A stretch of DNA of 64,000 bases from Rhodothermales bacterium (GCA_028278205.1 JANQES010000045.1:16319-80318); one strand, 5' to 3'; shown: positions 274-60,631, counted from the stretch's first letter. Program-made: numbers and translations. Notes: generated by a model not told the origin, from the sequence alone.

Positions 274-362
274 GAATTTTGGATTTTGGATTTGTGATTT
301 TGGATTGGCTGCCAGCGATCCAAACGACAATCCAAAATCCAAAATCTAAAATCTAAAATCGG
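274..362. repeat. GGATTTT-heptamer-armed hairpin element, short form
   Basis: Left arm gaattttggattttggatttgtgattttggattgg. Right arm caatccaaaatccaaaatctaaaatctaaaatcgg is its inverted complement. It fills the rnfC-rnfD spacer. Confidence 0.85.
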
Positions 363-365
363 ACC

Positions 366-1376
366 ATGAGCGCACAGACCCCGAAGTTGCTGCTAACGAC
401 CTCGCCCTTCCTGAAACAGCAGGAAGACACGGCGTGGATTATGTGGCAGGTGAACTACGCCCTGATGCCGGTGGTGCTGGCGGCGGTGTTCTTCTTCGGC
501 CTGCCGGCGCTCCTGGTGACGGCGGCCTGCGTGGCCGGGGCCGCGCTGCCGGAATGGCTGATCCAGCGGACGAGCGATAAGAAGCTGCTCAAAGACGGCA
601 CGGCGGTGATCACCGGGGTTTTGCTGGCACTCACGTTGCCGCCGACGATCCCGCTCTGGATGGCGTTCACCGGCGGCTTCATCGCTATCACGCTGGGCAA
701 ACTGCTGTTCGGGGGGATCGGCTACAGCCTGTTTAACCCGGCGCTGGTGGGGCGGGCGTTTTTGCAAGCCGCCTTCCCCGTGGCGATGACCACCTGGACG
801 CCCAACGGCACGCTGAGCGACTTTTTCTCGGTATCGGGCAGCAGTTTTGCCTGGCCGTTCATGAAGCCCTCGGTGGATGCCATCAGCGAGGCGACGCCGC
901 TGGCGCAGATGAAGTTTTCCGGCCAGGAAACCGGCGTGATGGACCTCCTGCTCGGCTCGACGAGCGGCTCGCTGGGCGAGACCGGCGCCCTCGTCATCTT
1001 GCTCTGCGGCGTCTACCTGGCCTCGCGGCAGGTGCTCAACTGGCGGATCCCGGTGAGCATCTTCCTGACGGTCTTCGCCTTTGCCGGTATCCTCCATCTG
1101 GTCGATCCGTCGGCTCATGCGTCGCCGTTTTTCCACCTGTTTTCGGGTGGGTTGATCATCGGCGCCGTCTTCATGGCCACGGATCCGGTGACCTCGCCCA
1201 ACAGTCAGCGCGGGTGCTGGATCTTCGGCTTCGGCATCGGGGCGCTGGTCGTCATCATCCGCGCCTTCGGCGGCCTGCCGGAGGGTGTCATGTACGCCAT
1301 CCTGCTGATGAACGCCGCCTCGCCCCTGATCAACCGCATCACCCAACCGCGCATTTACGGCACGCGGGGGCAGTGA
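366..1376 (+). CDS. rnfD: RnfD (NqrB/RnfD family, FMN-binding membrane subunit)
   Basis: 336-aa polytopic membrane ORF with the conserved GAVFMATDPVTSP flavinylation motif. Lies in rnf operon context. Confidence 0.9.
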   Translation: MSAQTPKLLLTTSPFLKQQEDTAWIMWQVNYALMPVVLAAVFFFGLPALLVTAACVAGAALPEWLIQRTSDKKLLKDGTAVITGVLLALTLPPTIPLWMAFTGGFIAITLGKLLFGGIGYSLFNPALVGRAFLQAAFPVAMTTWTPNGTLSDFFSVSGSSFAWPFMKPSVDAISEATPLAQMKFSGQETGVMDLLLGSTSGSLGETGALVILLCGVYLASRQVLNWRIPVSIFLTVFAFAGILHLVDPSAHASPFFHLFSGGLIIGAVFMATDPVTSPNSQRGCWIFGFGIGALVVIIRAFGGLPEGVMYAILLMNAASPLINRITQPRIYGTRGQ

Positions 1377-1407
1377 TTTTCTCAACTACCGAACCTGTAC
1401 GACCGCC

Positions 1408-1435
1408 GTAGAGACGTTACATGTAACGTCTCTAC
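1408..1435. repeat. 28-bp perfect palindrome GTAGAGACGTTACATGTAACGTCTCTAC, copy 1
   Basis: Exact self-complementary 28-mer in the rnfD-rnfG spacer. An identical copy lies at 32753-32780. Confidence 0.95.
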
Positions 1436-1487
1436 AAATGTCGCCATAAACACCCACGGCGACACACGCAATCGAATAAAACCTAGC

Positions 1488-2192
1488 ATGGCCGACCCGC
1501 CAAAAACATCCTTCCCCTTTCCGCCGCCGGAGCAGCCCAGCAGCGTTAAGATGATTGCGGTGATGGGCAGCGTGGGGTTGATCGCCAGCGTGTTGCTGGT
1601 GGCGACGTTTCAGCTTACCAGCCCGCAGATCGCCCGCAACAAGCAGGCGCAGCTCGAAGCCGCCGTGCTGGAGGTGCTGCCGGGGGCGACGTATTTCAAA
1701 CCCTTCAGCCCTACCGGCGACGGCGGGCTGGCCGCTGTGAGCGAAGACGACACCCCCGACTTCACGTTCTACGTGGGCTACGACAGCCTCAACGCCAACG
1801 CGCTCGTCGGTGTAGCTATCGAAGCGCAGGGGCAGGGCTATGCTGATGTCATCCGCATCCTCTACGGCTACGATCCCGCGTGCGAGTGCGTCGTCGGGAT
1901 GAAAGTGTTGGAGAGCAAAGAGACGCCCGGCCTCGGCGATAAGATCGCCAAAGACCCGGCGTTTTTATCCAATTTCGAAGCCCTCGACGTGAAACTCGGC
2001 CCGGACGGCGAGACGCTCGTCAACGAGGTGGTCCTCGTCAAGCAAGGCACCAAGACCGAAGCCTGGCAGATCGACGCCATCACCGGCGCGACCATCTCGT
2101 CGCAGGCCATCACCGACATCATCTGGAGCAGCACGCAGGTGCTCTTGCCGCTGATCCAGACCAACCTCACAACCCTTCAGGAAGGCTCATGA
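1488..2192 (+). CDS. rnfG: RnfG (FMN-binding subunit)
   Basis: N-terminal TM anchor and an FMN_bind-type motif ITGATISSQAI near the C-terminus. Its stop overlaps the rnfE start (ATGA). Confidence 0.88.
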   Translation: MADPPKTSFPFPPPEQPSSVKMIAVMGSVGLIASVLLVATFQLTSPQIARNKQAQLEAAVLEVLPGATYFKPFSPTGDGGLAAVSEDDTPDFTFYVGYDSLNANALVGVAIEAQGQGYADVIRILYGYDPACECVVGMKVLESKETPGLGDKIAKDPAFLSNFEALDVKLGPDGETLVNEVVLVKQGTKTEAWQIDAITGATISSQAITDIIWSSTQVLLPLIQTNLTTLQEGS

Positions 2193-2854
2193 CGACGCAG
2201 GAAGAGACCGCCACGCCGCTGCCGCCGCGCTCCGAGCCGCCCTCGGACATGGACACGTTCATCAAGGGGCTCTGGCGGGATAATCCGGTGTTTGTGCAAG
2301 TGCTGGGCATGTGTCCGGTGCTGGCCGTCACCAACACCGTCATCAACTCCGTGGTGATGGGGCTGGCGACGACGTTCGTGCTGTTGATGTCGAGCATCTT
2401 CGTCTCGCTGTTCCGCAAAGTCATCCCCAAACAGGTCCGGATCGCCTCGTTCATCCTGATCATCGCCACGTTTGTCACGATGGCGGATTACGTGATTCAG
2501 GCCGTCAGCCTCGAAGTGCATCAGAGCCTGGGCGCGTTCATCTCGCTGATCGTGGTCAACTGCCTGATCCTGGGGCGGGCCGAGGCTTTCTCGTCGAAAA
2601 ATACCGTCGGCAAGTCGATGCTGGATGCGGTGGGGATGGGCGTCGGGTTCACGTTTTCGCTGCTGTGCCTGGGCGTGGTGCGCGAGGTGTTGGGCAACGG
2701 CACCTTCGCCGGCATCTCCGTCTTCGGCCCCTCCTTCGAGCCCTGGGTGGTGATGATCCTGCCGGGCGGCGCCTTCTTCGTGCTCGGCGCCTGGCTGCTG
2801 TTGTTCAACTGGATGCGCGAGCGGAAAAAGCAACAAGAAGAGGTGTTTGCCTGA
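2189..2854 (+). CDS. rnfE: RnfE membrane subunit
   Basis: Contains LWRDNPVFVQVLGMCPVLAVTNT, typical of RnfE/NqrD. Polytopic membrane protein. Confidence 0.88.
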   Translation: MTTQEETATPLPPRSEPPSDMDTFIKGLWRDNPVFVQVLGMCPVLAVTNTVINSVVMGLATTFVLLMSSIFVSLFRKVIPKQVRIASFILIIATFVTMADYVIQAVSLEVHQSLGAFISLIVVNCLILGRAEAFSSKNTVGKSMLDAVGMGVGFTFSLLCLGVVREVLGNGTFAGISVFGPSFEPWVVMILPGGAFFVLGAWLLLFNWMRERKKQQEEVFA

Positions 2855-3435
2855 TGAAAACCGAATCGCTCTTCTACATCTTCCTCAACGCCTCGCTGAT
2901 CAACAACTTCGTGCTGGCGGCGTTTCTGGGGATCTGCCCATTCATCGGCGTCTCGAAGAAGCTGGAGACCGCCTCGCGCATGGGCATGGCCGTGACGTTC
3001 GTGATGCTCGTCAGCAGCGTCTGCGCCTACGGCGTCCACCTTGCGCTGGTAGCCATCAACGCGCCGTACCTCCAGTTGATCTCCTACATCGTCATCATCG
3101 CCTCGGCGGTGCAACTCGTCGAGATGTTTATCAAGAAATTCAGCCCGGCGCTTTTCCAGGCTCTGGGCATTTTCCTGCCACTGATCACCACGAACTGCGC
3201 CATCCTGGGCCTGGCGCTTTTTCAAACGGCCAAACAGTACGACTTCGTGCAATCGCTGGTCTACGCCCTCGGCGCCGGCGTCGGCTTTGCGCTGGCTATC
3301 ATCCTGATGGCCGGCCTGCGCGAAGAACTCGAACTCTCCGAGATGTCGGACGTTGTCAAAGGAACAGCCATCGTGCTGATGATCGCCGGCATCCTCTCGA
3401 TCTCCTTCATGGGCTTCGCCGGTTTAGGAGGCTGA
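2854..3435 (+). CDS. rnfA: RnfA membrane subunit
   Basis: ATG at 2854 overlaps the rnfE stop (TGATG). Begins MKTESLFYIFLNASLINNFVLAAFLGICPFIGVSKK, typical of RnfA/NqrE. The longer ORF 2311-3435 in the track is an out-of-context 5' extension. Confidence 0.88.
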   Translation: MKTESLFYIFLNASLINNFVLAAFLGICPFIGVSKKLETASRMGMAVTFVMLVSSVCAYGVHLALVAINAPYLQLISYIVIIASAVQLVEMFIKKFSPALFQALGIFLPLITTNCAILGLALFQTAKQYDFVQSLVYALGAGVGFALAIILMAGLREELELSEMSDVVKGTAIVLMIAGILSISFMGFAGLGG

Positions 3436-3437: not shown

Positions 3438-3580
3438 GAATTTTGGATTTTAGATTTTGGATTGTGTACCCCCGGCCAATCCAAAAACCGGAAAAGTCGA
3501 AACGCTCCGAATCGCTGCGGCTTTTTCGATTGAGAAAATGGTTTCGAATGAGACCAATCCAAAATCCAAAATCTAAAATC
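3438..3580. repeat. GGATTTT-armed MITE-like element, long form with terminator-like core
   Basis: Arms are gaattttggattttagattttggattg and ccaatccaaaatccaaaatctaaaatc. The core contains gctgcggctttttcgattgag, shared with the copies at 17261 and 53974. Confidence 0.85.
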
Positions 3581-3583
3581 GAC

Positions 3584-7977: not shown

Positions 7978-8809
7978 GGGCTTCGCTTTCGTGGCGGAAC
8001 GCAGCGGCGTTCGCGTTGAAGGTGCGGAACGAGCGGGCAATGCCGGCATGATCAAGCCCCAGATGCTCGAACCTGTCGGCCAGCGACGTGGTGTTGGGCG
8101 AGTCGTTGGGGCCGTAGCAGCCGTAGCACCCCCGGTTGTAGGCCGGGCAGAGCGCGCCACAGCCCGCGTGCGTCACCGGGCCGAGACACGGCGTGCCGTG
8201 GGCCACCATCACACAGACCGTCCCCTGTCGTTTGCACTCGACGCAGACACTGTGCGACGGGATGACGGGCCGGCGGTTGTTCAAAAAGGCGTTGAGCACC
8301 TCGACCAACTGCACCTTGTTGATCGGACAGCCGTGCAGTTCGTAATCGACGAAGACGTGGTACGAGATGGGCGTCGAGACTTTAAGCGTCTCGATGTATT
8401 GCGGCTGCGCGTAGACCAGCGAGATGAATTCGTTGACGTTCTGGAAATTACGCAACGCCTGGATGCCGCCCGCCGTCGCGCACGCGCCGATGGTGACGAG
8501 GTGCTTCGACGCCCGCCGGATCTTGTGAATCCGCTCGGCATCATGCGACGTGGTGATCGATCCTTCGACCAGCGACACGTCGTACGGGCCACGCACGACG
8601 GCCCGCGTGGCCTCCGGAAAATACGCGATGTCGATGGCATCGGCGATGGCCAGAAGCTCGTCCTCGCAGTCGAGCAGGCTCAACTGGCACCCGTCGCACG
8701 AGGCGAATTTCCAGACGGCTAACTTCGGCTTGCGTGGTGCTTTTTTCTTCGGCATAGCTGGTTTCGCGGTTGGCGTTTTATGCCTGTGTTTGCGTTGGTC
8801 ATGAGTCAC
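7961..8809 (-). CDS. [NiFe] hydrogenase small (delta) subunit, NuoB/20-kDa-like
   Basis: Contains [25 protein letters not shown] and a C-terminal Cys cluster. The upstream ATG at 8809 lies inside a palindromic repeat. The alternative start MPKKKAP is at 8755. Confidence 0.85.
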
Positions 8810-8863
8810 GGGTCATGAGTCATGGGTTCTTTTCTCATGACCCGTGACTCATGACCCATGACC
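8797..8863. repeat. CATGAC/GTGAC-type palindromic element
   Basis: ggtcatgagtcacgggtcatgagtcatgggt, a short loop, then ctcatgacccgtgactcatgacccatgacc. A related copy is at 37937-37996. Confidence 0.85.
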
Positions 8864-16226: not shown

Positions 16227-16303
16227 AAGTGTTTGAGTGTTATAGTGTTTGGGTGTTCAAGTTCTTTTACTCAAACACTATAACACCTTAACACTCAAAC
16301 ACT
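16227..16303. repeat. GTGTT-oligomer palindromic element
   Basis: agtgtttgagtgttatagtgtttgggtgtt pairs with tcaaacactataacaccttaacactcaaacact. Relatives lie at 43569-43637 and 47519-47592. Confidence 0.85.
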
Positions 16304-17269
16304 ATGAAGACCGTCCGGCTGGCTCTGGAGGCGATGGCGACGCGCTTCGAACTCGTCCTCCACGGCGACGACGCGGTGCGGTTGCGGGCTGCCGGCGAAG
16401 AGGCCCTGGCCGAGATCCGGCGGCTGGAAGCGCAGTTGAGTTTCTACGATCCGTCGAGCCAGATCAGCCGGATCAACGCGCGGGCTGCTGACGGCCCGGT
16501 GCGGGTAGCGCCGCGTCTGTTCCGGCTGTTGCAAACGGCGCAGCAGTTGCACGCCGCCACCGACGGCGCCTTCGACCTGACCGTGGCGCCGCTGATGCGA
16601 TGCTGGGGGTTTACACGCGGCACGGGCCATCTGCCCGACCCTGAAGCGCTGGCCGAAGCCCGAAGCAAGACCGGCATGCATCTGGTCCTGCTCGACGAAG
16701 AGGCCTTCACCGTGGCCTTCGCCCGCCCCGGCGTGCTGCTCGACCTGGGCGCCATCGGGAAAGGATATGCCGTCGAAGAAGCCGCGCAGATTCTCGTCGA
16801 AGCCGGGGTCGAACGCGCCTTTCTGCACGGCGGCACCAGCACCATCCACGCCCTCGGCACGCCGCTCGACGAGGCCTGCTGGAACGTGGCGATCCCACAC
16901 CCGGACGCCGACCCCGCCGCGCCGAATGACGACGACGTGCTGGTGGTGGTCCCGCTCAAAGACGAGGCCCTGTCGGTCTCGGCGGTCTGGGGCAAAGCGT
17001 TCGAGGCCGATGGCAAAACCTACGGCCACGTGCTCGATCCGCGCTCCGGCCACCCGGTCGACGGCGCGGTGCTCACCGCTGTAGCCGGCCCCTCGGCCAC
17101 TACGTGCGACGCCCTCTCGACGGCCCTCCTCGTACTCGGCTGCGACGCCGGGGAACTGATGACCAGCCTTGACGATAGCATCCGTGCTATGACGGTCTGC
17201 TCAAAGGATGCCGAAGACGGGTTTGAGGTGATGCAGACTGGTATCGAGGTCTACGACCCTGGATTTTAG
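16304..17269 (+). CDS. apbE: FAD:protein FMN transferase (ApbE family), no signal peptide seen
   Basis: Contains [35 protein letters not shown] and DALSTAL. The TAG stop (17267-17269) lies inside the following repeat arm. Confidence 0.82.
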
Positions 17270-17406
17270 ATTTCGGATTTCGGATTTTGGATTGGTGATG
17301 AACAACGGTCCCGAACAATCGAAAAAGCCGCGATGGTCAGAAACGCTCCGGCTTTTTCGATTGAGATAACGGCGTCGTCTCAGACCAATCCAAAATCCAA
17401 AATCGG
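17261..17406. repeat. GGATTTT-armed MITE-like element, long form
   Basis: Arms are ggattttagatttcggatttcggattttggattgg and ccaatccaaaatccaaaatcgg. The core is aatcgaaaaagccgcg...ccggctttttcgattgag. Confidence 0.85.
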
Positions 17407-18718: not shown

Positions 18719-18780
18719 GGAACCCTTGACTGTTCAAGAAACAGCCCGCTCGCAAATCTTGATGGGCTAGCTTGACACAT

Positions 18781-18839
18781 ACTGCGTACTTCGTATTGCG
18801 TAAGGGTGCTTATTAATACGCAATACGGAGTACGCAGTA
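18781..18839. repeat. palindromic intergenic element
   Basis: actgcgtacttcgtattgcgtaaggg pairs with tacgcaatacggagtacgcagt. Confidence 0.75.
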
Positions 18840-18846
18840 CGTTTTT

Positions 18847-20679: not shown

Positions 20680-20765
20680 AGGAAAGGAAGAGAGGGAGAA
20701 AGGGCGAGAGGGCGATTTGTTCTTTTCACCCTTTCCCCCTCTCTCCCACTCCCCCTCTCACTCAC
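20680..20765. repeat. purine-rich/pyrimidine-rich (GAGGG-type) palindromic element
   Basis: ggaaaggaagagagggagaaagggcgagagggcg pairs with caccctttccccctctctcccactccccctctcactc. A related copy lies at 50776-50860. Confidence 0.8.
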
Positions 20766-23700
20766 TCAGAGCAGGCGAGGCATCCATCTGGTCGAGCACC
20801 CGCGCCATGCCGCGTTCGACGGCGTCGATGAGGTAGGGGCGCAGCGTTTCGGGCGGGATGATGTGCTGCACCGACCCCACCTTCTGCGCGCGGTGGACGC
20901 TGTGGATGCCGTCGAACTCGTCGGCCACCTGGCCGAGTTTTTCGGAGTGGATCTCGTGGAAGAGTTCCTCGCGGCGTGTTTGCAGGCGCACCTTCTCGGC
21001 GCCTTCGGCCTGCTTGATCTCTTCGTCGAGCGCGCGCAGGCGCGTGTCGGCGAGGGCGCGTTTTTTCACCTCGCGTGCAAAGACCACCGCCGCTGCCGGC
21101 GCCCCGCCGATGACCGACGCATAGGTGCCCTCCAAAGCGACAATCTCCATGTTCTCGTTGAGCGCGTTCGAGAAGACCACGAAAGCGCCGCCGTGATAGC
21201 GCGAGATCACACAGAAGATAATCGGCCCTTTGAAGTTGACCACCGCGCGCCCGATCTCGGCGCCGTATTCGAGCTGCCAACTCCGCAGTGACTCTGGCGA
21301 ACCGTCGAAGCCTGACAGGTTGGCCAGCACCACGACCGGGCGATTGCCCGAAGCCGCGTTGATGGCCCGCGCCACCTTCTTCGACGAACGCGGGAAGAGC
21401 GTCCCGCCCGTCCACACGTCCGGGCCATCGGCTGGGATAAAGCCGAAGCGCGAGAGCGGGCGCGACTCCAGGCCGAGCAGACACACCGGGTAGCCGCCGA
21501 TGTGAGCGTCCCACACCACCGCGATCTCGGCATCCTCCATCCCGTACCAGCGTTCCAGCGGCTCATGATCCTGATCGACACAGGCCTTCATGATGCGGCG
21601 CACGTCAAAGGGTTTCTTCCGTCCGGGGTTCTTCTCATCGGAGAAGACCTCGCCGATCTGGCCGAAGCTGATGCCGTTGACACGACCGTGCTCGTAGGTG
21701 CGCACATCGCGGGCGGTGGGGTCGTCGGTGTCGGCGCGGCGGGGGAAGCGCTCGCCGGGCACGACGTAGGTGTGATCGTAGTAGCGCAGCAGGATGTGGC
21801 AGGCTTCGGTGATGTCGCGGGCGAAGTACTGCGCCTGGCCGTTGGGCCCCATGATGCGCTCGTAGCCGCCGATGCCCAGGTTATCCTCGGCAGAGACGCC
21901 GCCGGAATAGTCGAGCGCCTGCTTGCCGGTGAGCACCATCGCAGCATCGGCGGTCATGATCAGGATGCCGCGCGTGTGCATGAGCATCGTTGCCTCGGCG
22001 TTCCAGTAGGGCTGCGCGCCGACGTTGATGCCGATGATGATGATGTTGACCTCGCCGCCGCCCTGCGTGAACTCGACCAGCCGCCGGAGCACCAACGCGA
22101 TCCAGTCCATGTTCTCGGTGCCGCTATCCATGGCGATCTTGGCGCCGGCAGAGACGGCGAACCATTCCAGCGGGATGTCTTTTTCCTTGGCCAGGCGCAT
22201 CGCCTCGTTGATGCGGCGGCATTCGGCCTCAGCGAGGTTGCCCATACCCCGGCTCGGATCACCCAGAATAATCACCCGCTCCATCCCGTCGGGATATTTG
22301 GCAGTGTAGTTGCGGATGGTCCCGACGACGACGTTGGTGGTGTTCTGCCCGGCGGGCCGGTCTACCGGCACGAGCACGTTGTTTTCGTCGAGATCGTATT
22401 CGGCGAACGAGCCGGGCGGCAGCCCCGTCGGCGCGCCTTCGCGCTGGGGCGTGAACATTTTGATGAGTTCGTAGGGATAGACGAGCCCGCGCCGCTTGAG
22501 CCGGAGCACCTGTTGCTCATAGGCACTCAACGGCGCCAGCGGCTCCTCGGTCGGCTCGTCGAAGCTCGTCACGACGCCGCTATCGCCGATGTTGGAGATG
22601 GTGATGACGATGTCGCGGGCCTCTTTCGTCTCCGTCTTCGGCAGCGTAGCGTGTACTTCGATGGCTTCGATGCCGAGGCCTTCGGTAGCAGGAGCCAGCC
22701 GGTGGACGATGTGGTTGAACTCGTCGCTTCGAAGCGCGATGGGCGGCCAGATGTAGAGCAAGATCCGGTTCCAATGCAGCCGCCTGCGGGGCGGGCGCTG
22801 GGCCTGGAAGTGCCGGAAGCCAGCCAGCACCTCACTGAGCATCCGTTCGAGGTGCGGCAGTTGAACGACCCGGCCCGAGGCATCGCGCACGGGGGTCATG
22901 TCGCGGATCTCGGCCACGCCGAAGAGCCGTTCGTCCTGCGGATTGTCCCGCGCCACGCCGCGCATCAGGTAGACGTCTTCAGGCGAGGACAGGCGTTCGA
23001 TGTCGAAGTTTTGGAGCCGCCACAGGTTGAGGCGTTTGGCCATCATCGGGTGGAGGCCCCGGTGCAAGACACCTTTGAAGGATTTCTCTTCCCAGTAGCC
23101 GTCTTCCGAAGGACGGATGGTGAAGTGCTGCGTGCCGCCGATGCCCATGCCGCTCTCCGGCCCGGAGAGCGCCACGACGATCCGCCGGAGGCCGCGCGGG
23201 CAGGCGCTATCGTTGAAGACAGCCAGCACCTCCTGCAAGGTCTCTTCCGAGTCGCCGAGCGGGCCGTCTTTCCACAGATAGAAATCGACCACGATGTCGT
23301 GATCTTCGGGCAACGTCTCGACCATCGGGCACAACATCACAGCGGCATGGGCCAGCCCCTCGTAGGGCGCATGCGTGGTGATGGTGTGGACGTGTTTGCC
23401 CTCGTGATCGTATTCCGCCATCACGAAATGCTTGCCTTCTATCGTTTTGGCCTGAACGTTTTCGAGCGAACGGATCCGGTAGTACCGCCGGGTGATGACC
23501 TCCAGCATGATCGCCCCCAGCGCCGACGACGCCGTCTCGAACCGGCTCGAAAGCAGGCTCTTGAGCGGCTGCGGGCACCGCACGAGCGCTTCGATTCGCG
23601 CGGCGCGGTCCGGGGCGTCGGGATGTTCTTCGAGATAGGCCAGGTGGGCGACAGCTTCGGTATAGGCTTCGCGGCGTGCTTGCTCCAGCAGCGGCTGCGC

Positions 23701-26367: not shown

Positions 26368-26370
26368 GGC

Positions 26371-26479
26371 GATTTTGGATTTTAGATTTTGGATTTTGGA
26401 TTTGGAATCGGGATTGCGGATTCCGGACAGCTTGATTCAATCAAACCAATCCAAAATCCGCAATCCAAAATCCAAAATT
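26371..26479. repeat. GGATTTT-armed hairpin element between megasynthase and carboxylase genes
   Basis: gattttggattttagattttggattttggatttggaatcgggattgcggattcc pairs with ccaatccaaaatccgcaatccaaaatccaaaat. It occupies the whole 110-bp spacer within a same-strand gene pair. Confidence 0.85.
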
Positions 26480-35642: not shown

Positions 35643-35696
35643 GGTGCTTTTCCTTTTAGGTTCAGGCAGGATGCTTCCGTTCTGCTTTTTTGAGCC

Positions 35697-35779
35697 GTTG
35701 AGTTGGTCACTGGTCATTGGTCATTAGTGTCTTTCAAGAACCAGTGACTAGTGACCAATGACCAGTGACCAACTCAACG
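35697..35779. repeat. GTCACTGGTCATTGG-type palindromic element
   Basis: gttgagttggtcactggtcattggtcattagtg pairs with ccagtgactagtgaccaatgaccagtgaccaactcaac. A related copy lies at 46692-46770. Confidence 0.85.
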
Positions 35780-37936: not shown

Positions 37937-37996
37937 GGTCATGGGTCACGGGTCATGAGTAAGAATCCCATGACTCATGACCCGTGACTCATGACC
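37937..37996. repeat. CATGAC/GTGAC-type palindromic element
   Basis: ggtcatgggtcacgggtcatgagt pairs with catgactcatgacccgtgactcatgacc. Confidence 0.85.
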
Positions 37997-42700: not shown

Positions 42701-43570
42701 ATGATACCCGCGCCTTTTGATTATCACACACCCTCCTCGCTCGACGAAGCCCTTTCTTTGCTTCAGGAGTACGGCTACGAGGCTAAGATCCTCACGGGCG
42801 GGCAGAGCCTGCTGCCTATGATGAAACTGCGCCTGGCCGAGCCGGAGCATATCATCGATCTCAACGGGATTCCGGGCCTGGCGTACATCCGCGAAGAAGA
42901 CGGCCACGTCAAGATCGGCGCCTTGACGCGCGAGGCGGAGATGGAAGAATCCGCCCTGATCCGCGCGAAGCTGCCCATCCTCCATGACACTGGCAAGCTC
43001 ATCGCCGACCCGCAGGTGCGCAACCTGGGCACGCTCGGCGGCAACCTGGCCCACGGCGATCCGGGCAACGATCACCCGGCGACGATGCTGGCCCTCGGCG
43101 CGCGGGTGGTGGCCATCGGCCCCAACGGGCAACGCGCGATCCCGGTGACGGAGTTTTTTGTGGATTTCTACACGACGGCCCTCGAACCGGAGGAGATCCT
43201 CACCGAGATCCAGATCCCGCTCCCACCGCCGGGCAGTGGCGGCGCCTACCTCAAGCTCGAACGCAAAGTAGGCGACTACGCCACGGCGGGCGTCGCTGCG
43301 CAGGTGACGATTGATGCTACAGGACGTTGCACCGAGGCCGGCATCGGGTTGACGAATGTGTCGTACGTGCCCGTCAAAGCCACCGACGCCGAAGCGCGCC
43401 TGCGCGGCTCAACCCTGAGCGAGGTGGACCTCAACGAAGCCGCCGGGTTGGCCGCCGCCGCGAGCCGTCCGTCTTCCGATCTTCGCGGATCCGAAGAATA
43501 CAAACGCGCCATGGTCCGCGTGCTGACCAAACGCGCCCTCCAACGCGCCATCGCACGAGCACGCGGGTAG
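42701..43570 (+). CDS. coxM: CO dehydrogenase medium (FAD-binding) subunit
   Basis: Start MIPAPFDYHTPSSLDEALSLL...ILTGGQSLLPMMKLRL. Belongs to the FAD_binding_5/CO_deh_flav_C family. The M-S-L gene order is typical of form I. Confidence 0.88.
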   Translation: MIPAPFDYHTPSSLDEALSLLQEYGYEAKILTGGQSLLPMMKLRLAEPEHIIDLNGIPGLAYIREEDGHVKIGALTREAEMEESALIRAKLPILHDTGKLIADPQVRNLGTLGGNLAHGDPGNDHPATMLALGARVVAIGPNGQRAIPVTEFFVDFYTTALEPEEILTEIQIPLPPPGSGGAYLKLERKVGDYATAGVAAQVTIDATGRCTEAGIGLTNVSYVPVKATDAEARLRGSTLSEVDLNEAAGLAAAASRPSSDLRGSEEYKRAMVRVLTKRALQRAIARARG

Positions 43571-43637
43571 TGTTTTAGTGTTATAGTGTTTTAGTTCTCC
43601 TTCCTCAAACACTATAACACCATAACACTAAAACACT
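43569..43637. repeat. GTGTT-oligomer palindromic element
   Basis: agtgttttagtgttatagtgttttag pairs with caaacactataacaccataacactaaaacact. Confidence 0.85.
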
Positions 43638-50775: not shown

Positions 50776-50860
50776 GAAAGGGGGAAAGGGAGAGAGGGCG
50801 AAAGGGGGATTAAAAGCGATTTTTCTCCCTCTCCCCCGCTCTCCCTCTCTCCCTCTCTAA
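50776..50860. repeat. purine-rich/pyrimidine-rich palindromic element
   Basis: gaaagggggaaagggagagagggcgaaaggggga pairs with tctccctctcccccgctctccctctctccctctc. Confidence 0.8.
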
Positions 50861-52834: not shown

Positions 52835-53974
52835 ATGTACCAGTATCAACAAACGAATCGCTTTTTCGCCCAGATTGCGCGGGGGCTTGAAGACCTCGGC
52901 GCAGAGGAACTCGAAGACCTCGGCGCGCGCAACACCGCCCCGGCCTATCGCGGGCTGTATTTCGACGCGGACGCCGAGGCGCTCTATCGCATCACCTACT
53001 GCGCGCGGCTGATTACGCGGGTGCTGGCGCCGCTGACGGCGTTTCACTGCCACAACCCGGATTATCTCTACCGCGCGGCCAAAAAGATCGCGTGGACGGA
53101 TTTTCTGTCGATGGATCAGACTTTCGCCGTCTTCGCCAACGTTTCGAACAGCAAGATCCGGCATTCGAAATACGCGGCGCTGCGCGTCAAAGACGCCGTC
53201 GTGGATGGGTTTCGGGAGCAGTTCGGGCGGCGGCCCAGCGTCGATACGCGGCAGCCGGACGTGTGGATTAATCTGTACATCGAAAACAACCACGCCACGC
53301 TGAGCCTCGACGCGTCGGGCGGGTCGCTGCACCGGCGGGGCTACCGGCAGCAGGCGGGCGAGGCGCCGATGCAGGAGACCGTGGCCGCCGCCGTCATCCG
53401 CCTCTCCGGCTGGCAGGGCGAGCAGCCGCTCTACGATCCGATGTGCGGCTCCGGCACGCTCCTGGCCGAGGCGCTGATGCACTACTGCCGCATCCCGGCG
53501 GGCTTCCTGCGCAACCGGTTCGGCTTCGAAGCCCTGCCCGATTTCGACGCGGCGCGCTGGGCCGCCGTCCGCCGGGAGGCCGACGCGTTGATGCGCCCGC
53601 TGCCCACCGGACTCATCGCCGGCAGCGACGTCTCGGCAGAGGCCGTCGCGATGGCGCGGACCAACCTCGGCGCGCTGCCCTACGGCGAGACCGTCTCGCT
53701 CGCCGTCAAAGATTATCAAGACATCGCCCGCCTCGAAGACACCACCCTGATCACGAATCCGCCTTATGGAAAGCGCATCGGGCGGCAGGAATCCATCAGC
53801 GTTTTCTACAAAACTCTGGGCGATTTCCTCAAACAACGCTGCACCGGCTCGACGGCCTATCTCTACGCCGGAGACCGCGCCCTGCTCAAAAAAGTAGGCC
53901 TGCGCCCCTCCTGGAAAAAGCAACTGTTCAACGGCGCGCTGGATGGGAGATTGGCGAAGTACGAACTCTACTAA
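52835..53974 (+). CDS. THUMP-domain class I SAM-dependent RNA methyltransferase (RlmL/COG0116-like)
   Basis: Has a THUMP-like N-terminus, DPMCGSGTLLAEA (motif I) and ITNPPYGKRIG (motif IV). ATG at 52835, with an in-frame TTG at 52832. Confidence 0.78.
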   Translation: MYQYQQTNRFFAQIARGLEDLGAEELEDLGARNTAPAYRGLYFDADAEALYRITYCARLITRVLAPLTAFHCHNPDYLYRAAKKIAWTDFLSMDQTFAVFANVSNSKIRHSKYAALRVKDAVVDGFREQFGRRPSVDTRQPDVWINLYIENNHATLSLDASGGSLHRRGYRQQAGEAPMQETVAAAVIRLSGWQGEQPLYDPMCGSGTLLAEALMHYCRIPAGFLRNRFGFEALPDFDAARWAAVRREADALMRPLPTGLIAGSDVSAEAVAMARTNLGALPYGETVSLAVKDYQDIARLEDTTLITNPPYGKRIGRQESISVFYKTLGDFLKQRCTGSTAYLYAGDRALLKKVGLRPSWKKQLFNGALDGRLAKYELY

Positions 53975-54127
53975 TTTTGGATTTTAGATTTTGGATCTTG
54001 GATTGTTTACATCCACGATCCGCAATAATCGAAAAAGCCGCGACGGTCGGGACCGCTGCGGCTTTTTCGATTGAGATGTTGGTGCCAAATCAGACCAATC
54101 CAAAATCCAAAATCTAAAATCCAAAAT
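53974..54127. repeat. GGATTTT-armed MITE-like element, long form, between convergent genes
   Basis: Arms are aattttggattttagattttggatcttggattg and ccaatccaaaatccaaaatctaaaatccaaaatt. The core aatcgaaaaagccgcgacggtcgggaccgctgcggctttttcgattgag resembles a bidirectional terminator. Confidence 0.88.
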
Positions 54128-56395
54128 TCACTTACCCGGCATGCTCGTCAGGTACTCGACAGCGGCTTGCAACACCTCGTCTTCTCCGGCACGAAGGCCC
54201 TGGATCGTGGGTTTGACTTCGACGTGGGGGACGAGGCCGAGGCGTTGGAGTTGGCGTCCGTCGGCGTGGCGGACAGATTGGCCGGTGAAGCCCAGACGGA
54301 TGCCGCCGGGCACGAAAAAGCCGGTGACGTCGCCGTTGGCGCCGTTGGTGTGGCTGCCGATGAAGACGGTGCCGTTGGCGGCTTCGAAAAATAGCCCTGT
54401 GTGCTCGGCCTGGCTGATGGTGCGCTCGTCGATGAGCATGACAGTCTTGCCTTCATAGCGCGTCACGTGCGGCCCCGGCGCGGGGATGCGCTGCGTAAAC
54501 GTGTACTGCTGCCGCCCCGACCGGCCCGGCCCCAGAATCATCGGGCGGTCGAAGAGCGCGGCGCCAGCCTGAGGTTCTTCGGCCAGGTAGGGTGCGATGG
54601 TCCAGGCGGTGCCGTTGGGATAGCCGCGCATGTCGAAGATGATGGCGTCGGTGTCTTTGAACTGGTCGAACATCGCCGGCACCTGCGCCGGAGTCAGCCG
54701 GTCGAGGTCGGCATAACCGATGTTGTCGTCGAGCATCCGGACGACTTCGCCCGTCCGATAGGTATAACGCGGCCAGCCTGCCCGGCGCAGCGCCTCGACG
54801 GTCTTCACCTGGCCGTTTTTGCCGCGCACCGTAAGAACCGCCTTGCTGCTATCAGGGCCGCTCAGAATCTGGCCTACCGCCCGGCTCATGAGCGCCTGCT
54901 GCGTCGAAGCGGCGATGTATTGAGTGTGATGATGGGCCAGTTCGACGGCGTCCTTGCCATCGACCGTGAGAATCACGTCACCGATTTCGATGCCGGAGGC
55001 AGGGGCAATTTCGTCGTCGAGATATTTGACCACGACCGGCGCATCTTCAATCCATCGAAGATAGAACGGCGGGGAGCCGGTGCCGTGGTGCTCGTTCAGC
55101 ACCTCGCTCCGGAGGAAGCCGTGCGTGTCGCGGATGTGGGCGTACATCTCGGCGACGGCGAGGTGATAGGCCGCGGCATCCTCGGCCTGGATGAAACGCG
55201 GGAGGTAGGCGCGGAAGACCTCGTCCCAGTCGTCGTCCATCAAATCGAGATAGGGGAAGAAATAATTGATGACGGCCCAGATGCGATAGGCCCCCAGGAT
55301 CCGGTATTCGAGCGACGGATAGGCCGGATCGGCATAGGCCTGATCGGGAGGTAAGGCAGCGGTGGCGGCCACCGGACGGCGCGACGCGGGCCGGGGTTCG
55401 AAGTTTTGCGCGAGCATCAGGCTGCGTTGCACGGCTTCGTCTGCGCCGTCTACACTGAGGTTGGGCGCAAACCCGGCGGTTCCATCAGGATAGATCAGCT
55501 CGCCGAGGCGCACCGACGCCTGCACGCCGTCGCTCATCGCCACCGTGTGCGTCTCGACGAGGGCCGCATCCGAGACCGTTCCCTCGCTGACGACAGCCGC
55601 CCGGCCTGCCTCCTGCAACGCCAGCGCCAGCGACGGAATGCCGCCGCTTTCGTTGATCAGAAAAACCACCGGCGCGTCGATGCCGGAGCCGCTCGGCGCG
55701 ATGTACTGGCCGTTGCTGGTCGTAAAACCGTTGTAGTATCCGCCCGACGACATGCCCTGCTGCGGCGGATAGCCCATGTGCAGCCGCTTGCGCTGGCCGG
55801 GCGGCGCCAGCGGCACAGCAGCCAGCGCCTTATCGAGCCCACTCCATTGCAAGTAATAATCAAGCCCGATGGGGAATTCGGAACGCAGGTCGAAGACAAG
55901 GCCACGCGCCTTGCCCGCCTCTGCCGCCACGCCACGCAGCTTTCCGACCGCCGCAAAAAAATCCTGGCCCAGCGTCTTCGGATTCAGCGTCACCACCAGC
56001 ATGCTGTCGACCGTCCAGTACGAGAGCGGGTCGGGTTCGCCGGGCGGCGGCATAGGCGGGAAATCGACTTCGACGATGCGTGTGGCCGGGTCGTCGAGGG
56101 CGTCGAGCATCGTCTGAACAGCCGCTGCGTAAGACGCCGAATCCGTCGCGGCCTCGACCGTCGGGATCGTGGCGACGAGGGCGGAATCCCAGTCGATGGC
56201 CCGGTAGGCCAGGTAGGGATGGAAATATTTGACGGTGCCCCAGAGCTTCCCCAGATCGACGAGCCGTTCCAGGCGAAGCGAGTCGGGCGGCGTCTGCTGC
56301 GCGTGCGCGGGCGGCACCGATGCCGTCAGCCCCAAAAGCACAATCAACACAGCAAGCACAAAACGAATACGGGCGATACGAAATCGTCTAGACAT
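54128..56395 (-). CDS. S41-family (C-terminal processing / tricorn-core-like) peptidase with PDZ-like segment
   Basis: Signal peptide MSRRFRIARIRFVLAVLIVLLGLTASVPPAHA starts at 56395. PDZ-like segment GIEIGDVILTVDGKD. C-terminal S41 region VMLIDERTISQAEH. Confidence 0.7.
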   Translation of the reverse strand: MSRRFRIARIRFVLAVLIVLLGLTASVPPAHAQQTPPDSLRLERLVDLGKLWGTVKYFHPYLAYRAIDWDSALVATIPTVEAATDSASYAAAVQTMLDALDDPATRIVEVDFPPMPPPGEPDPLSYWTVDSMLVVTLNPKTLGQDFFAAVGKLRGVAAEAGKARGLVFDLRSEFPIGLDYYLQWSGLDKALAAVPLAPPGQRKRLHMGYPPQQGMSSGGYYNGFTTSNGQYIAPSGSGIDAPVVFLINESGGIPSLALALQEAGRAAVVSEGTVSDAALVETHTVAMSDGVQASVRLGELIYPDGTAGFAPNLSVDGADEAVQRSLMLAQNFEPRPASRRPVAATAALPPDQAYADPAYPSLEYRILGAYRIWAVINYFFPYLDLMDDDWDEVFRAYLPRFIQAEDAAAYHLAVAEMYAHIRDTHGFLRSEVLNEHHGTGSPPFYLRWIEDAPVVVKYLDDEIAPASGIEIGDVILTVDGKDAVELAHHHTQYIAASTQQALMSRAVGQILSGPDSSKAVLTVRGKNGQVKTVEALRRAGWPRYTYRTGEVVRMLDDNIGYADLDRLTPAQVPAMFDQFKDTDAIIFDMRGYPNGTAWTIAPYLAEEPQAGAALFDRPMILGPGRSGRQQYTFTQRIPAPGPHVTRYEGKTVMLIDERTISQAEHTGLFFEAANGTVFIGSHTNGANGDVTGFFVPGGIRLGFTGQSVRHADGRQLQRLGLVPHVEVKPTIQGLRAGEDEVLQAAVEYLTSMPGK

Positions 56396-56567
56396 AGCGC
56401 GAGATGGATTGTGGGTTTTGAATTTCTGATTTCTGGATGTAATCCTGTCTATTGGGGCTGTAGACGCGCTCTTGATAGGGAACGCCGCGTTTCCACCACA
56501 GAAACCCACTCACTGCGAATAGGACGAAGAGAAGGAGGAAAAAGTTTACGAACCAAAATCCAAAATC

Positions 56568-57095
56568 CTACAACTCTGCCATAAACGCGCGTCGCAGCGC
56601 CGCCGAGTCGAACCAGATGAGCACCCAGAACGTCGTCTCGCCGAGACGTTTTAGAGCTTCGTGCCGGTGCGCGCCGTCGTTGAGCAAGAGCCGGAAGGCG
56701 CCGGTTTCATCGCGCGCGGCGCGGGCAATCATCGGCGGCATGTCTTGGGGATGAGCGAAGGCGTTTTGGATGGCCGTCACGCGCCGTTCCCAGTCTTCGC
56801 GGGGTTCTTTCCAGGGCATCGCCTCTTCGGGGCCGAGGCGCCGTATCAACCGGGCCAGCGGCAATTCGACCGGCCCAATCCAGAAGCGTTCTGCGCGGTC
56901 GAACCACGCGCCCAGCCGCTGGTGGTAGTCGTCTTCGCCCGTGCTGAGATACGCCCGAATCCACGCTTCGAGCCAGCCTTGCCCGGCGCACTGCATCGCC
57001 CCCTCGACCGTGAAATCGTGGAGGGATGCCTCGGTATGGTCTGCGTGATTCACGGAAAAACGAGGCTGGGTAACGAATTGAAGGTATTTGGTCAT
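56568..57095 (-). CDS. hypothetical protein, possible ParB/sulfiredoxin-like domain
   Basis: Start MTKYLQF at 57095. The C-terminal LLLNDGAHRHEALKRLG resembles the DGxHR motif of ParB/Srx folds, but the match is weak. Confidence 0.4.
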   Translation of the reverse strand: MTKYLQFVTQPRFSVNHADHTEASLHDFTVEGAMQCAGQGWLEAWIRAYLSTGEDDYHQRLGAWFDRAERFWIGPVELPLARLIRRLGPEEAMPWKEPREDWERRVTAIQNAFAHPQDMPPMIARAARDETGAFRLLLNDGAHRHEALKRLGETTFWVLIWFDSAALRRAFMAEL

Positions 57096-58191: not shown

Positions 58192-58231
58192 GTCTATGGC
58201 CTCCGTATTGGTTTATACTCGTTTTACTCGT

Positions 58232-58407
58232 GTCATTGGTTCGCTTCGCTCTCGTCAGTTGGCTCGCCTTCGGCTCGCCGTCAGTTGTGCCTTCGGCGCG
58301 TCATTTATTGTCATTGGGTCGAACGTGACAATGAATGACAGCGAGCGAAGCGAGCAATTGACGTGAGCGAAGCGAACTAATGACGCGTGCCAAGCACGCC
58401 AATGACC
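58232..58407. repeat. ~175-bp imperfect palindrome between etfB and etfA
   Basis: gtcattggttcgcttcgctctcgtcagttggctcgcc...gtcatttattgtcattgg pairs with gtgacaatgaatgacagcgagcgaagcgagcaattgacgtgagcgaagcgaactaatgac...ccaatgacc. Confidence 0.8.
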
Positions 58408-58408
58408 A

Positions 58409-59158
58409 CTAAATAACCTTCGCCTCTTCGCGCAGCAGGCGCACGACTTCGGGCACGGCATCGACGCCGTTTTCGAAGAGTTTGCCGGCGGCTTTTTCAG
58501 GCGGATAGCTCAGCCGTTCGATGACCAGATTTTCGGCCCCCAGGGCGGCGGGCTGCACGTCGATGGGTTTCTTCTTGGCCTGCATGATCCCCCGGAACGA
58601 CGGATAGCGCGGCTCGACCAGACGCCGGTTGACGCCGACGACCGCCGGCAGGCTGAAACCCACCTTTTCGTGGACGCCTTCGAGCACGCGTCGCGCCCAG
58701 CCCTTGCCGTCTTCGAGGTGAAATTCCTCGACGGCGGTCACGCAGGGCACCTTGAGCGCCTGCGCGATGAACTGCGGCACCTGAGCATTGTCGCCATCGA
58801 CGGCTTGCTGGCCCATGAAGATGAGGTCGTAGCCCCCCGCTTCCAGCACCGGGATGAGCGCCCGCGCCGTCGCCAGCGAATCGATGGGCATGTGGCCGGT
58901 GTCCAGGCGGATGGCTTTGTGCGCACCCATCGCCAGCGCTTCGCGGATCGACTTCTCGATGCGCTCCGGCCCCAGCGAGATGACCGTCACCTCGCCGCCG
59001 TGCTCTTCGGTCAACAGCAACGCCTGCTCCACCGCCGACTCGTCGTAGGGGTTGATGATCCACTGGATGTCGTCTTCGACGATCCACTTGCCATCGTCGG
59101 CGATTTTAACCCGGGTTTCGGTATCCGGGGTCTGTTTTATGCAAACGGCAATGTTCAT
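58409..59158 (-). CDS. etfB: electron transfer flavoprotein beta subunit
   Basis: Start MNIAVCIKQTPDTETRVKI at 59158. The track ORF extends to 59263. Confidence 0.9.
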   Translation of the reverse strand: MNIAVCIKQTPDTETRVKIADDGKWIVEDDIQWIINPYDESAVEQALLLTEEHGGEVTVISLGPERIEKSIREALAMGAHKAIRLDTGHMPIDSLATARALIPVLEAGGYDLIFMGQQAVDGDNAQVPQFIAQALKVPCVTAVEEFHLEDGKGWARRVLEGVHEKVGFSLPAVVGVNRRLVEPRYPSFRGIMQAKKKPIDVQPAALGAENLVIERLSYPPEKAAGKLFENGVDAVPEVVRLLREEAKVI

Positions 59159-59433
59159 AAGCCCGTCCTCGTCATAGGTTGTTGCAAAACGTTTCCAATG
59201 ATCACAAACCAGCGGCGAACATTCTGGCAGTGATCCGCTATTCTGCGTGTAGGGGATCTGCAAGAGGTGGAAGTAAGGGATCCCCCCACAGCGTCACAAT
59301 TTAGGAAGCGCAAAAAAAGAGAATGGTGAATATCGATCAAGAAATCGAAAGGGAGAAAGGGGGATTTTCTGAATATCGAATATCGATCAAGGAATGTCGA
59401 TTGGAGAAGGTATTCTCAGTTCCTCCGACATTC

Positions 59434-59457
59434 AAAAATCCAAAATCTAAAATCCCA
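59434..59457. repeat. solitary GGATTTT-type arm
   Basis: aaaaatccaaaatctaaaatccc overlaps the stop of the lipoprotein gene. No partner arm was seen nearby. Confidence 0.6.
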
Positions 59458-60631
59458 ACCTCCCCGCATCCCCGACGATGATCGTGTCGAGCGGGATCCA
59501 GGTGCCGGAGAGGCGGTAGCCGGCGCCAACGAAGCCGAAGCCGTTTTCGACGTTGGTCAAGGTGCCGGGCTGCACCAGCACGTCGGCGTCGAAGACCCCG
59601 CCGGGCGGATCCCATTCGGCATTGGCCACAATCAACCGGATCGTCAGTTTCGCCAGCTTCAGCCCGATGTTCGGATCGACGGTCGTGTTCTGTTCGATAA
59701 GGCGTTGGAGGGTTCGGAGGTCGCCGCGCGGCGTCAGGTCGATGACCCAGCCGCCCGCGACGCGGCGTTGCTTGCCGTCGTAGGTCAGCGTGGCCGTGCC
59801 GATTTCGATGCCAGCCGGTGTCAGGTACCGATAGCGATAGGTCACCTCGATGCGGATGAGGTTGGGCACGTCGGTGCCCTGGACGAAGACCGTCAGGAGC
59901 GGCGGCGCCAGGTCTGTGCGTGCCGGCAGCACCAGCGTCGCCGGCCCCGGCACCTCCACCTCCACGTGGCTGGCCGCGCCGTCGGAGCGTTCAACCTCCA
60001 GGCGATAGGCCCGCCCGAACGGCGCCGCAAACGACGACCAGTAGACGTGCGCAAACTGGCCGTTCTCTTCCTGAATGAGCGAATCCTGCCACACCCGCTG
60101 CTCGCCCGTGAGCAGATCCGTCGAGGTAAACTGTGCGTCGAGCGGCCCCGGCGGCGCCGGCTCTAACCGCCCTTCGATGGGAAAAACACGCACCCACTGC
60201 GTATCAGACTGCGGCGTAAGCACGCCGAACATCGAGAACGGCAGTTCGGTCCCCAACACCGCCACCACGTCTTCCTCGCACGCGCTGAAGGAGACGGCGA
60301 AGAGACAGGCGAAGACGGCCCAGGCTGTGAGGAGAGGGGTCGGATTTTGGATTTTGGATTTTGGATTTTGGATTGGGGTGCTGTTCTCAAAACGATCCGC
60401 AATCTCCCTACTATCGAAGCTCGTCACGTGGCTCTGCCGCGTGACGTCATTCCGGACGGCTCTGCCGTCATGAGGCCGTTTGGGCGACAGAGCAGCAGGG
60501 TTTTCGAATTGCGAATCAGTCCTCTTTCTCAAACAATCCAAAATCCAAAATCCAAAATCCAAAATCCGATCCCCATACCTCTCACTGGTAGGTAAAAAAG
60601 TTTCGCTATGTGAATGCTCAGATCGTCTCAT
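59447..60631 (-). CDS. lipoprotein downstream of TonB-dependent receptor (DUF4249-like by context); start uncertain
   Basis: Lipobox-type signal LLTAWAVFACLFAVSFSAC is encoded near 60270-60330, with no ATG/GTG/TTG just upstream. The only coupled start is ATG at 60631 (TAATG overlap with the receptor stop), and it reads through repeat 60342-60568. Confidence 0.5.
   Translation of the reverse strand: MRRSEHSHSETFLPTSERYGDRILDFGFWILDCLRKRTDSQFENPAALSPKRPHDGRAVRNDVTRQSHVTSFDSREIADRFENSTPIQNPKSKIQNPTPLLTAWAVFACLFAVSFSACEEDVVAVLGTELPFSMFGVLTPQSDTQWVRVFPIEGRLEPAPPGPLDAQFTSTDLLTGEQRVWQDSLIQEENGQFAHVYWSSFAAPFGRAYRLEVERSDGAASHVEVEVPGPATLVLPARTDLAPPLLTVFVQGTDVPNLIRIEVTYRYRYLTPAGIEIGTATLTYDGKQRRVAGGWVIDLTPRGDLRTLQRLIEQNTTVDPNIGLKLAKLTIRLIVANAEWDPPGGVFDADVLVQPGTLTNVENGFGFVGAGYRLSGTWIPLDTIIVGDAGRLGF
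60342..60568. repeat. GGATTTT-armed element with a distinct core, embedded in the 5' end of an ORF
   Basis: Arms are ggattttggattttggattttggattttggattgggg and caatccaaaatccaaaatccaaaatccaaaatccg. The inner hairpin is cgtcacgtggctctgccgcgtgacg. Confidence 0.85.

Follow-up and report, generated by a model that had tools for sequence, protein, structure and literature searches.

The 64,000-nucleotide window of the Rhodothermales bacterium genome analysed here (contig C60, 16319-80318; the assembly comprises 6.86 Mb in 149 contigs, with 60.6% GC and a completeness of around 90%) contains a series of hairpins, situated at the ends of genes, whose inverted arms are tandem arrays of the heptamer GGATTTT. 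With up to two mismatches allowed, GGATTTTGGATTTT matches 47 times in the window, against 0.23 ± 0.51 times in shuffled sequence, and every arm was resolved by Tandem Repeats Finder as a period-7 array of 2.3 to 4.7 units. All six paired copies reported in a first-pass annotation of the window were recovered in place (Table 1). Two arms that it had taken to be solitary proved to have partners: that at 56553-56568 faces a degenerate arm at 56406-56436, and that at 59435-59455 is matched by a single GGGGATTTT unit near 59360, the two enclosing a hairpin built from another word. No Rfam family matched within the window. The copies fit tightly between genes, as had been described at first pass. 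The left arm of the 17261 copy contains the stop codon of the ApbE gene (TAG, 17267-17269), whilst the copy at 53972-54129 exactly fills the gap between two convergent stop codons, that of the methyltransferase gene (TAA, 53972-53974) turning its first unit into TAATTTT. As the C terminus of the encoded protein (...KYELY*) is retained in 18 orthologues, this copy begins exactly at the ancestral stop; synteny downstream is not conserved across the 18 orthologous loci. The copy at 26370-26480 constitutes the whole 110 nt stop-to-start gap between two same-strand genes of one operon.

Searching the entire genome for arms and clustering the cores, as the first-pass annotation had suggested, revealed 804 GGATTTT arms of at least two units (mode, four units) and 316 paired elements, in which GGATTTT is followed by AAAATCC and the spacing between arms clusters at 80-120 nt. 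The pairing criteria undercount the family, a copy between a kinase and a regulator gene having been missed by this census. The arms form inverted stems of 21-35 bp, and consist of tandem arrays that vary between copies, not of one fixed terminal sequence. One similarity cluster comprises 185 cores, and a search with its consensus located 231 core loci; the shared core is approximately 91 nt long and has both arms at 199 of these loci, hence arms and core have spread as one unit. Around 55 copies are plain, core-less hairpins and around 60 have other centres. The consensus reads (RGATTTT)n GGATTGG, about 23 nt of linker, AATCGAAAAAGCCGCGACGG-loop-CCGCTGCGGCTTTTTCGATT, about 22 nt of linker and CCAATCC (AAAATCY)n; its predicted fold has an energy of -54.5 kcal/mol and its central hairpin is about 46 nt long. 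The A-run, GC stem and T-run for which the core had been described as resembling a bidirectional terminator can all be read in this consensus. The three long copies in the window had been thought to share the sequence AATCGAAAAAGCCGCG...GCGGCTTTTTCGATT, which is present in the 17261 and 53972 copies; the stem of the 3438 copy has degenerated in its 5' half. The linkers are homologous between copies, with up to 91% identity over 132 nt, and the copies share a common ancestor. No GGATTTT-armed copy in this genome, complete to the extent given above, is coding. Two 'long' elements that seemed to carry cargo were rejected, being ordinary genes flanked by two separate elements, as was the idea that the core is common to families with other words, whose mid-size copies are nested composites.

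Table 1. GGATTTT elements of the window, with coordinates counted from its first nucleotide
Feature	Coordinates	Composition	Fold energy (kcal/mol)	Position relative to genes
Core-less GGATTTT hairpin	274-362	arms 274-308 and 327-362, loop of about 20 nt	-33.6	upstream of rnfD; right arm stops 3 nt 5' of the ATG (366)
Cored copy	3438-3581	3' half of central stem and T-run intact, 5' half degenerate		directly 3' of the rnfA stop codon (TGA, 3433-3435)
Cored copy	17261-17406			right arm finishes 20 nt before the next start codon (17426)
Central hairpin of the 17261 copy	17317-17362	A-run, GC stem, T-run (AATCGAAAAAGCCGCG...CCGGCTTTTTCGATT); matches family consensus		
Copy without terminator core	26370-26480	unique 42 nt centre, no other match in the genome	-43.5	stop 26478, start 26367
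Cored copy	53972-54129			between convergent methyltransferase and peptidase genes; peptidase stop 54128-54130
Central hairpin of the 53972 copy	54027-54072	near family consensus (AATCGAAAAAGCCGCGACGG..CCGCTGCGGCTTTTTCGATT); partly caught by simple terminator scan		
Degenerate old copy	56406-56568	eroded left arm GGATTGTGGGTTTTGAATTTCTGATTTCTGGAT, right arm CCAAAATCCAAAATCC, unique interior		
Composite	59360-59457	one GGGGATTTT unit and a three-unit right arm around a GAATATC / AATGTCG-type hairpin		
Copy with perfect arms	60342-60568	4.7 units per arm, 157 nt centre	-108.9	

The copies are old. No two of them are identical: nearest neighbours share 81% identity at the median and 94% at most. 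Identity to the consensus rises from 53-64% in the linkers through 74% in the loop and 85-88% in the stem to 94.5% in the inner arm unit, and positions 2-6 of the outer arm units are conserved at 98-100%. Even in the most diverged quartile, where the linkers are close to saturation at 40% identity, the stem remains 83% identical and folds at about -23 kcal/mol. Some stem pairs have undergone compensatory double changes, with 4693 paired cells compared with 4626 ± 15 in shuffles. Hence the arms and the hairpin have been maintained whilst the remainder of the element drifts. The number of units per arm ranges from two to seven and does not correlate between left and right (rho 0.08), nor are AGATTTT variants in one arm mirrored in the other above chance; templating of one arm by the other was rejected on these grounds, and arm length probably changes through local slippage. 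GGATTTT is thus a real, abundant, old and gene-less family of dispersed repeats.

It is also the largest member of a wider class. A census of the whole genome, in which arrays identified by Tandem Repeats Finder were paired, found 929 inverted pairs of 6-10 nt word arrays representing around 117 words, with approximately 294 pairs belonging to GGATTTT. Around 20% of the gaps between same-strand genes contain such a hairpin, as do 18.5% of those between convergent genes and 16% of those between divergent genes. Within the window, at least ten hairpins are composed of other words; they include those at 8797-8863, 16228-16303, 18780-18841, 20682-20767, 35703-35771, 37937-37996, 43568-43637, 50776-50858 and 63316-63384, with the words GGTCATG, AGTGTTTG, TACTGCG, GAGAGGG, TTGGTCA/ACCAGTG, TAGTGTTT, GAAAGGGG and AGGGTTC. 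The arms have an absolute polarity: GGATTTT is followed by AAAATCC within 160 nt in 300 cases and the reverse order never occurs, such that the G-rich arm is always 5'. When all words are considered, G outnumbers C in the 5' arm of 815 pairs and the converse is true of 18; by word family, the figures are 86 and 10. As an inverted repeat could be built either way round, this points to a strand-specific step in the making of the arrays, or to selection on a single-stranded form. The elements do share the features of simple sequence repeats (SSR) and short tandemly repeated repetitive (STRR) sequences of heptamers, being tandem 7 nt units that are intergenic and over-represented; however, a heptamer-SSR label leaves the shared core, the inverted pairing and the strict polarity unexplained.

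PF05635 is the family of the 23S rRNA intervening sequence (IVS) protein, a four-helix bundle, and includes the accessory protein Avd of diversity-generating retroelements. The genome encodes eight PF05635 proteins, and seven of the genes lie between inverted word arrays; with the exception of GGGCGAG, the words of these seven cassettes also form gene-less hairpins, in two to 35 copies. Several of the words found in the window hairpins are also among those flanking PF05635 genes in other parts of the genome. With a profile built from the local proteins, 64 full-length PF05635 loci were collected from many phyla; at least 26 of these loci outside the phylum are similarly flanked by arrays, with an inner span of 390-530 nt, and in 22 of the 26 the G-rich arm is 5'. 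A cassette with GGATTTT arms occurs in G028, a genome of the same order, where a PF05635 open reading frame lies between CGATTTTGGATTTTAGATTGCGGATTTTGGATTGT and CCAATCCAAAATCGTAAATCCAAAATCCAAAATCGG and the cassette fills the intergenic gap. Its own stop codon falls within the right arm, and its inner unit is GGATTGT/CCAATCC, the same special unit as in the copies described here. Since the gene was found between GGATTTT arms only in G028, the copies in this genome would be gene-less derivatives rather than full members of the cassette family. Synthesis of the arrays by a reverse transcriptase, a lead suggested by Avd, was rejected, as the genome, at 90% completeness, yielded no RVT_1 gene. Literature searches did not find the word-array architecture described as a family tied to PF05635 outside rRNA.

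The positions of the elements were determined relative to 4675 genes, predicted with a purpose-built caller based on codon usage. Where an arm edge faces the 3' end of a gene, it lies within 8 nt of the stop codon in 59% of cases, and the stop codon often forms part of the array, the first unit then reading TGATTTT or TAATTTT. Between same-strand genes, the elements begin a median of 2 nt after the upstream stop and leave a median of 33 nt to the following start. Convergent gene pairs harbour 21% of the cored copies, compared with 6% of those lacking the core (Fisher p = 4e-4) and a background of 13.6% (chi-square p = 0.009), and cores in same-strand gaps are oriented along the genes in 79 cases and opposed to them in 45 (p = 0.003). 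A simple terminator scan misses most cores, the loop and bulges of which exceed its limits, hence fold statistics were used instead. The core hairpin has a mean energy of approximately -22 to -25 kcal/mol; 78% of copies have a T-run of at least four, 69% an A-run of at least four and 61% both. The core therefore displays the sequence features of an intrinsic terminator, a GC-rich stem-loop and U-tract, with an A-tract mirroring the latter, and terminators without arms in related genomes resemble it. T-tracts of at least five are found in 74% of cored copies in convergent gaps, 64% of those in tandem gaps in the sense orientation, 59% of those in the antisense orientation and 50% of those in divergent gaps, a contrast that is significant only between convergent and divergent (p = 0.03). 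These features make a bidirectional terminator function plausible.

Comparison of filled and unfilled junctions indicates how the hairpins may have arrived. Of eight LytS-type kinase and LytTR regulator gene pairs that are paralogous at the protein level, one has overlapping genes (ATGA), another is separated by a single cored GGATTTT element that exactly spans the gap between stop and start, and three have hairpins of other words. Of 30 genomes of the order, 26 retain the junction between purH and mreB, mostly without word hairpins; it is filled in three of 26 genera: by a GGATTTT hairpin in G393, by a GGTCATG hairpin in G347 and, in the present genome, by a GTGTTAT-type hairpin sitting between conserved spacer ends. 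Filled and empty sites therefore exist between paralogues and between genera; the first-pass annotation had proposed looking for them in related strains to demonstrate mobility. At the DNA level, the joined flanks of elements matched only themselves, giving no paralogous empty site. Direct repeats adjoining the elements are at or below chance (12, 1, 0, 0... observed for lengths of 2-8 nt, compared with 14.6, 2.3, 1.0... expected), and the longest word shared between flanks averages 3.04 nt, compared with 3.12 nt for shuffled partners, in a test for which the copies are old and the arm boundaries fuzzy. Hairpins, REP (repetitive extragenic palindrome) pairs and a 25 nt mini-insert have all been found inside the loops or arms of other word hairpins, hence hairpin centres appear to be landing sites.

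The mini-insert (CACGAGCGAAGCGACTGACGAAGTA, around 25 nt, at least 129 copies) is a repeat in its own right, and is found inside the arms of many different word families (GGATTTT, GTGAAAC, ATACGCA, CATGACT) and within REP hairpins; examples on the plus strand of this genome (G000) lie near 125.2 kb of C25, 22.1 kb of C47 and 24.5 kb of C42. Insertion seems to take place at GA^A or CA^A and to produce no duplication, uninterrupted arrays representing the empty sites, and the repeat presumably resembles the very small mobile repeats of cyanobacteria.

With regard to its distribution, the cored GGATTTT family was not found in 18 genomes of the same family, which, judged by MreB identity, are more distant from this genome than several other families are. 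Cored homologues are present in G025 and G336, and short GGATTTT hairpins in G393, G336 and G019. In a sample of the phylum, (GGATTTT)x2.7 occurs in six of 300 other genomes, one of which has 17 matches. The family is consequently low-copy across the order, with a large expansion in this genome.

Taking these observations together, we consider it probable, with moderate confidence, that the GGATTTT elements are the largest, lineage-expanded and gene-less family of a class of foldback elements with arrays of 7-8 nt words as arms, of the type associated with PF05635, and that they have been retained as what is likely a leaky two-way terminator and RNA-processing site. Complete members of the class have a small PF05635 gene between their arms, in place of which most of the GGATTTT copies carry a conserved hairpin. 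Their spread would have been by a process that creates no target duplication and is directed preferentially at hairpin centres and the ends of genes, and their retention would reflect usefulness at the level of RNA. The central hairpin may act as a two-way, probably leaky, intrinsic terminator, and in transcripts that read through it the 21-35 bp stem formed by the arms could be subject to RNase III-type processing, or provide a stabilising structure, by analogy with the IVS of Coxiella.

Several points weigh against this interpretation. No PF05635 gene was found between GGATTTT arms in this genome, in an assembly that is 90% complete, and the arms are of low complexity, such that few informative positions support their homology with the G028 cassette. 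Arm conservation could be explained by homogenisation through slippage or recombination, instead of by selection. The role in RNA metabolism is inferred; in tandem gaps the frequency of T-tracts does not differ significantly between sense and antisense copies, 48% of the same-strand cored copies lie no more than 25 nt from the following start codon, and the copy that splits a kinase-regulator pair leaves 0 nt on either side. As a strong terminator in gaps this tight would be harmful, any termination is likely to be partial or bypassed. Furthermore, no precise empty site for a GGATTTT copy was found between strains, the comparison having included no genome of the same genus and the nearest metagenome match having 49% protein identity.

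A broader proposal, which we regard as possible but advance only tentatively, is that tandem-word hairpins represent a distinct system of selfish elements distributed across many phyla, with PF05635 as the factor that reads the words, a single-stranded intermediate and domestication by the host. Each PF05635 protein, itself encoded by an element, would recognise the word array particular to it; new copies would insert at the tips of hairpins and the ends of genes, with no duplication, via single-stranded DNA or RNA, and such an intermediate would impose the rule that the G-rich arm is 5'. The intervening sequences of 23S rRNA would be one special case, and hosts would repeatedly have domesticated gene-less copies as terminators or RNA-processing sites.

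The closest known system is the IVS of Coxiella burnetii, which has a 28 bp terminal stem with tandem GACAGAT heptamers, the number of which differs between strains, and an open reading frame for the S23p protein; the stem is cut by RNase III at the first repeat (PMC4990558). Both that element and those described here therefore have a stem of terminal inverted repeats of around 28 bp containing a variable number of tandem heptamers, both are suspected to be selfish, and the PF05635 gene in the loop has its counterpart in the G028 GGATTTT cassette and in seven of the eight cassettes of the present genome (PMC4990558). However, the copies studied here lie between protein coding genes and not in rRNA helices, they are gene-less and number around 300, most having a terminator-like hairpin in place of the open reading frame, and excision by RNase III has been shown for the IVS.

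Heptamer repeats as such, and their convergent pairing, are already known (PMC4692102, PMC4679880). The connection with PF05635 and the genome-wide class of words were not foreseen in the first-pass annotation. Among the repeats previously reported are convergent GGGAATC pairs, of which Xanthomonas genomes contain 70-75, and the GGGGA(C/T)T repeats of Nostoc (Rehm et al. 2015, PMC4692102). Like the GGATTTT elements, these are intergenic, have around four units and often occur as convergent inverted pairs able to form stem-loops; nevertheless, they were interpreted as simple repeats forming G-quadruplexes (PMC4692102), and a shared core, a cargo gene, a polarity rule and an analysis of copies as a family were not described. 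SPRITE elements are likewise small, dispersed, intergenic repeats with a terminator-like body that nest with other repeats, although they come from a different phylum and lack both tandem-word arms and a link to PF05635 cassettes. The STRR heptamers of cyanobacteria are tandem heptamer repeats of a similar kind. The Correia (nemis) elements of Neisseria have fixed 26 bp terminal repeats and a TA target duplication, in contrast to the tandem-word arms and lack of duplication seen here. They are otherwise comparable, being around 100-155 bp long and cotranscribed with adjacent genes, with inverted ends that give a long RNA stem, which is cut by RNase III; repeats of the miniature inverted-repeat transposable element (MITE) type that resemble terminators or are cut by RNase III have been described already (PMC10969869).

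Of the alternative explanations, the least improbable, albeit an unlikely one, makes the arms the functional part, either as binding arrays for a heptamer-recognising protein (of the cold-shock, S1 or PF05635 type) or as a translational-coupling stem melted by terminating ribosomes, the core being incidental. Conservation of the arm sequence goes beyond what pairing requires, approximately half of the same-strand gaps have the left arm at the stop codon and the right arm at the start codon, the polarity is strict, and CspB has been reported to bind heptamer repeats (PMC4679880). Yet this would explain neither the conservation of the central hairpin and its enrichment between convergent genes nor the existence of around 117 different words, and protein binding is putative here.

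Less probable still is that the hairpins were never mobile, having grown in place from a terminator or spacer by slippage of 7 nt units before being selected. The variation in unit number, its difference between the two arms and the unmirrored AGATTTT variants are all consistent with slippage, to which heptamer repeats, over-represented in bacteria, are known to be prone (PMC4692102, PMC4679880), and unit number also differs among Coxiella strains; slippage probably does explain the variation in arm length after insertion. However, independent growth would not account for around 230 loci that agree in word, inner unit (GGATTGG/CCAATCC) and stem sequence and have homologous linkers, and the same architecture recurs with a cargo gene.

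Very improbable, in our view, is a family of REPs or REPINs (REP doublets forming hairpins) spread by a REP-associated tyrosine transposase (RAYT), which carries a Y1 domain and acts on single-stranded hairpins. As with such systems (PMC3116915), the GGATTTT elements are abundant extragenic palindromes with family structure within the genome and no target duplications, and three PF01797 genes are present. Contrary to the RAYT connection raised at first pass, these three Y1 transposase genes are flanked by GC-rich REP hairpins of their own, of the GCCCCTACGGGGC type and the TTCCCACGC..GCGTGGGAA type, with no GGATTTT array within 1.5 kb of any of them; the arms studied here are instead tandem arrays, and their candidate partner protein is a four-helix bundle rather than a Y1 transposase. 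The Y1 genes (RAYT/IS200-like; L119, G000:C8:8862-12206; L120, C95:27097-30372; L121, C31:30664-33888) and their REPs are a separate, conventional REP/RAYT system in the same genome.

The MITE-like label given at first pass, if taken to mean an internally deleted insertion sequence moved in trans by an arm-recognising DDE transposase, is the least tenable explanation, for although the copies are small, gene-less, numerous and intergenic with inverted ends, these ends are variable arrays of two to seven units that are uncorrelated between sides, duplications and shared flank words do not exceed chance, the genome contains neither a coding copy (the 'long' ones being genes between separate elements) nor a parent element in which GGATTTT ends flank a transposase gene, and the only gene seen between GGATTTT arms, in G028, is PF05635 rather than a known transposase. 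The accompanying observation that no transposase is associated with the repeats holds true, there being no such gene inside or next to any copy.

Certain of the window copies have further features. The rnf/nqr-type cluster at 366-3435, which encodes RnfD (identified with Pfam) and RnfE/A-type subunits, has the core-less hairpin just 5' of rnfD, and its last gene is followed by a cored copy. A synteny test found no orthologue of rnfD in 20 genomes of the same family, and the MreB protein of this genome is 84-85% identical to those of other families of the order but 67% identical to that of one 'same-family' genus, hence this genome is unusual either in its family placement or in its gene content. 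The genes on either side of the 26370-26480 copy, separated by nothing but the GGATTTT hairpin, are exceptionally large (20758-26367 and 26478-35717 on the minus strand, encoding 1869 and 3079 aa).

The copy at 60342-60568 was correctly described at first pass as having a different core: its centre is another dispersed repeat composed of GC-rich, REP-like hairpins, making the whole a nested composite. This second repeat consists of paired hairpins (GTCACGTGGCTCTGCCGCGTGAC, GACGGCTCTGCCGTC), extends over 60376-60533 in the window and has at least ten copies elsewhere in the genome, at 77-89% identity (on C22, C85, C79, C17 and other contigs). An open reading frame of 503 aa on the minus strand (59447-60958) traverses the perfect-armed element, which shows perfect GGATTTT arrays to be free of stop codons in every frame; the true start of this gene, which has a weak match to DUF4249, probably lies downstream of the element. 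Tandem units of 22-26 nt (GTCAGTTGGCTCGCCTTCGGCTCGCC and AATGACGCGAGCGAAGCGAACA types) form a further intergenic repeat at 58211-58395, which has GAGCGAAGCG in common with the 25 nt mini-insert.

Around one fifth of the intergenic gaps in this genome hold a word hairpin, the GGATTTT family alone accounting for approximately 300. If the cores terminate or process transcripts, then a single repeat family would have rewired the 3' ends of several hundred genes. The absolute polarity, the conservation of arms and core, and the gene-bearing counterpart in a related genome provide handles on the nature and movement of IVS-type PF05635 cassettes, and may tie heptamer repeats known in bacteria for decades, such as the cyanobacterial STRR sequences and the GGGAATC pairs of Xanthomonas, to one mechanism.

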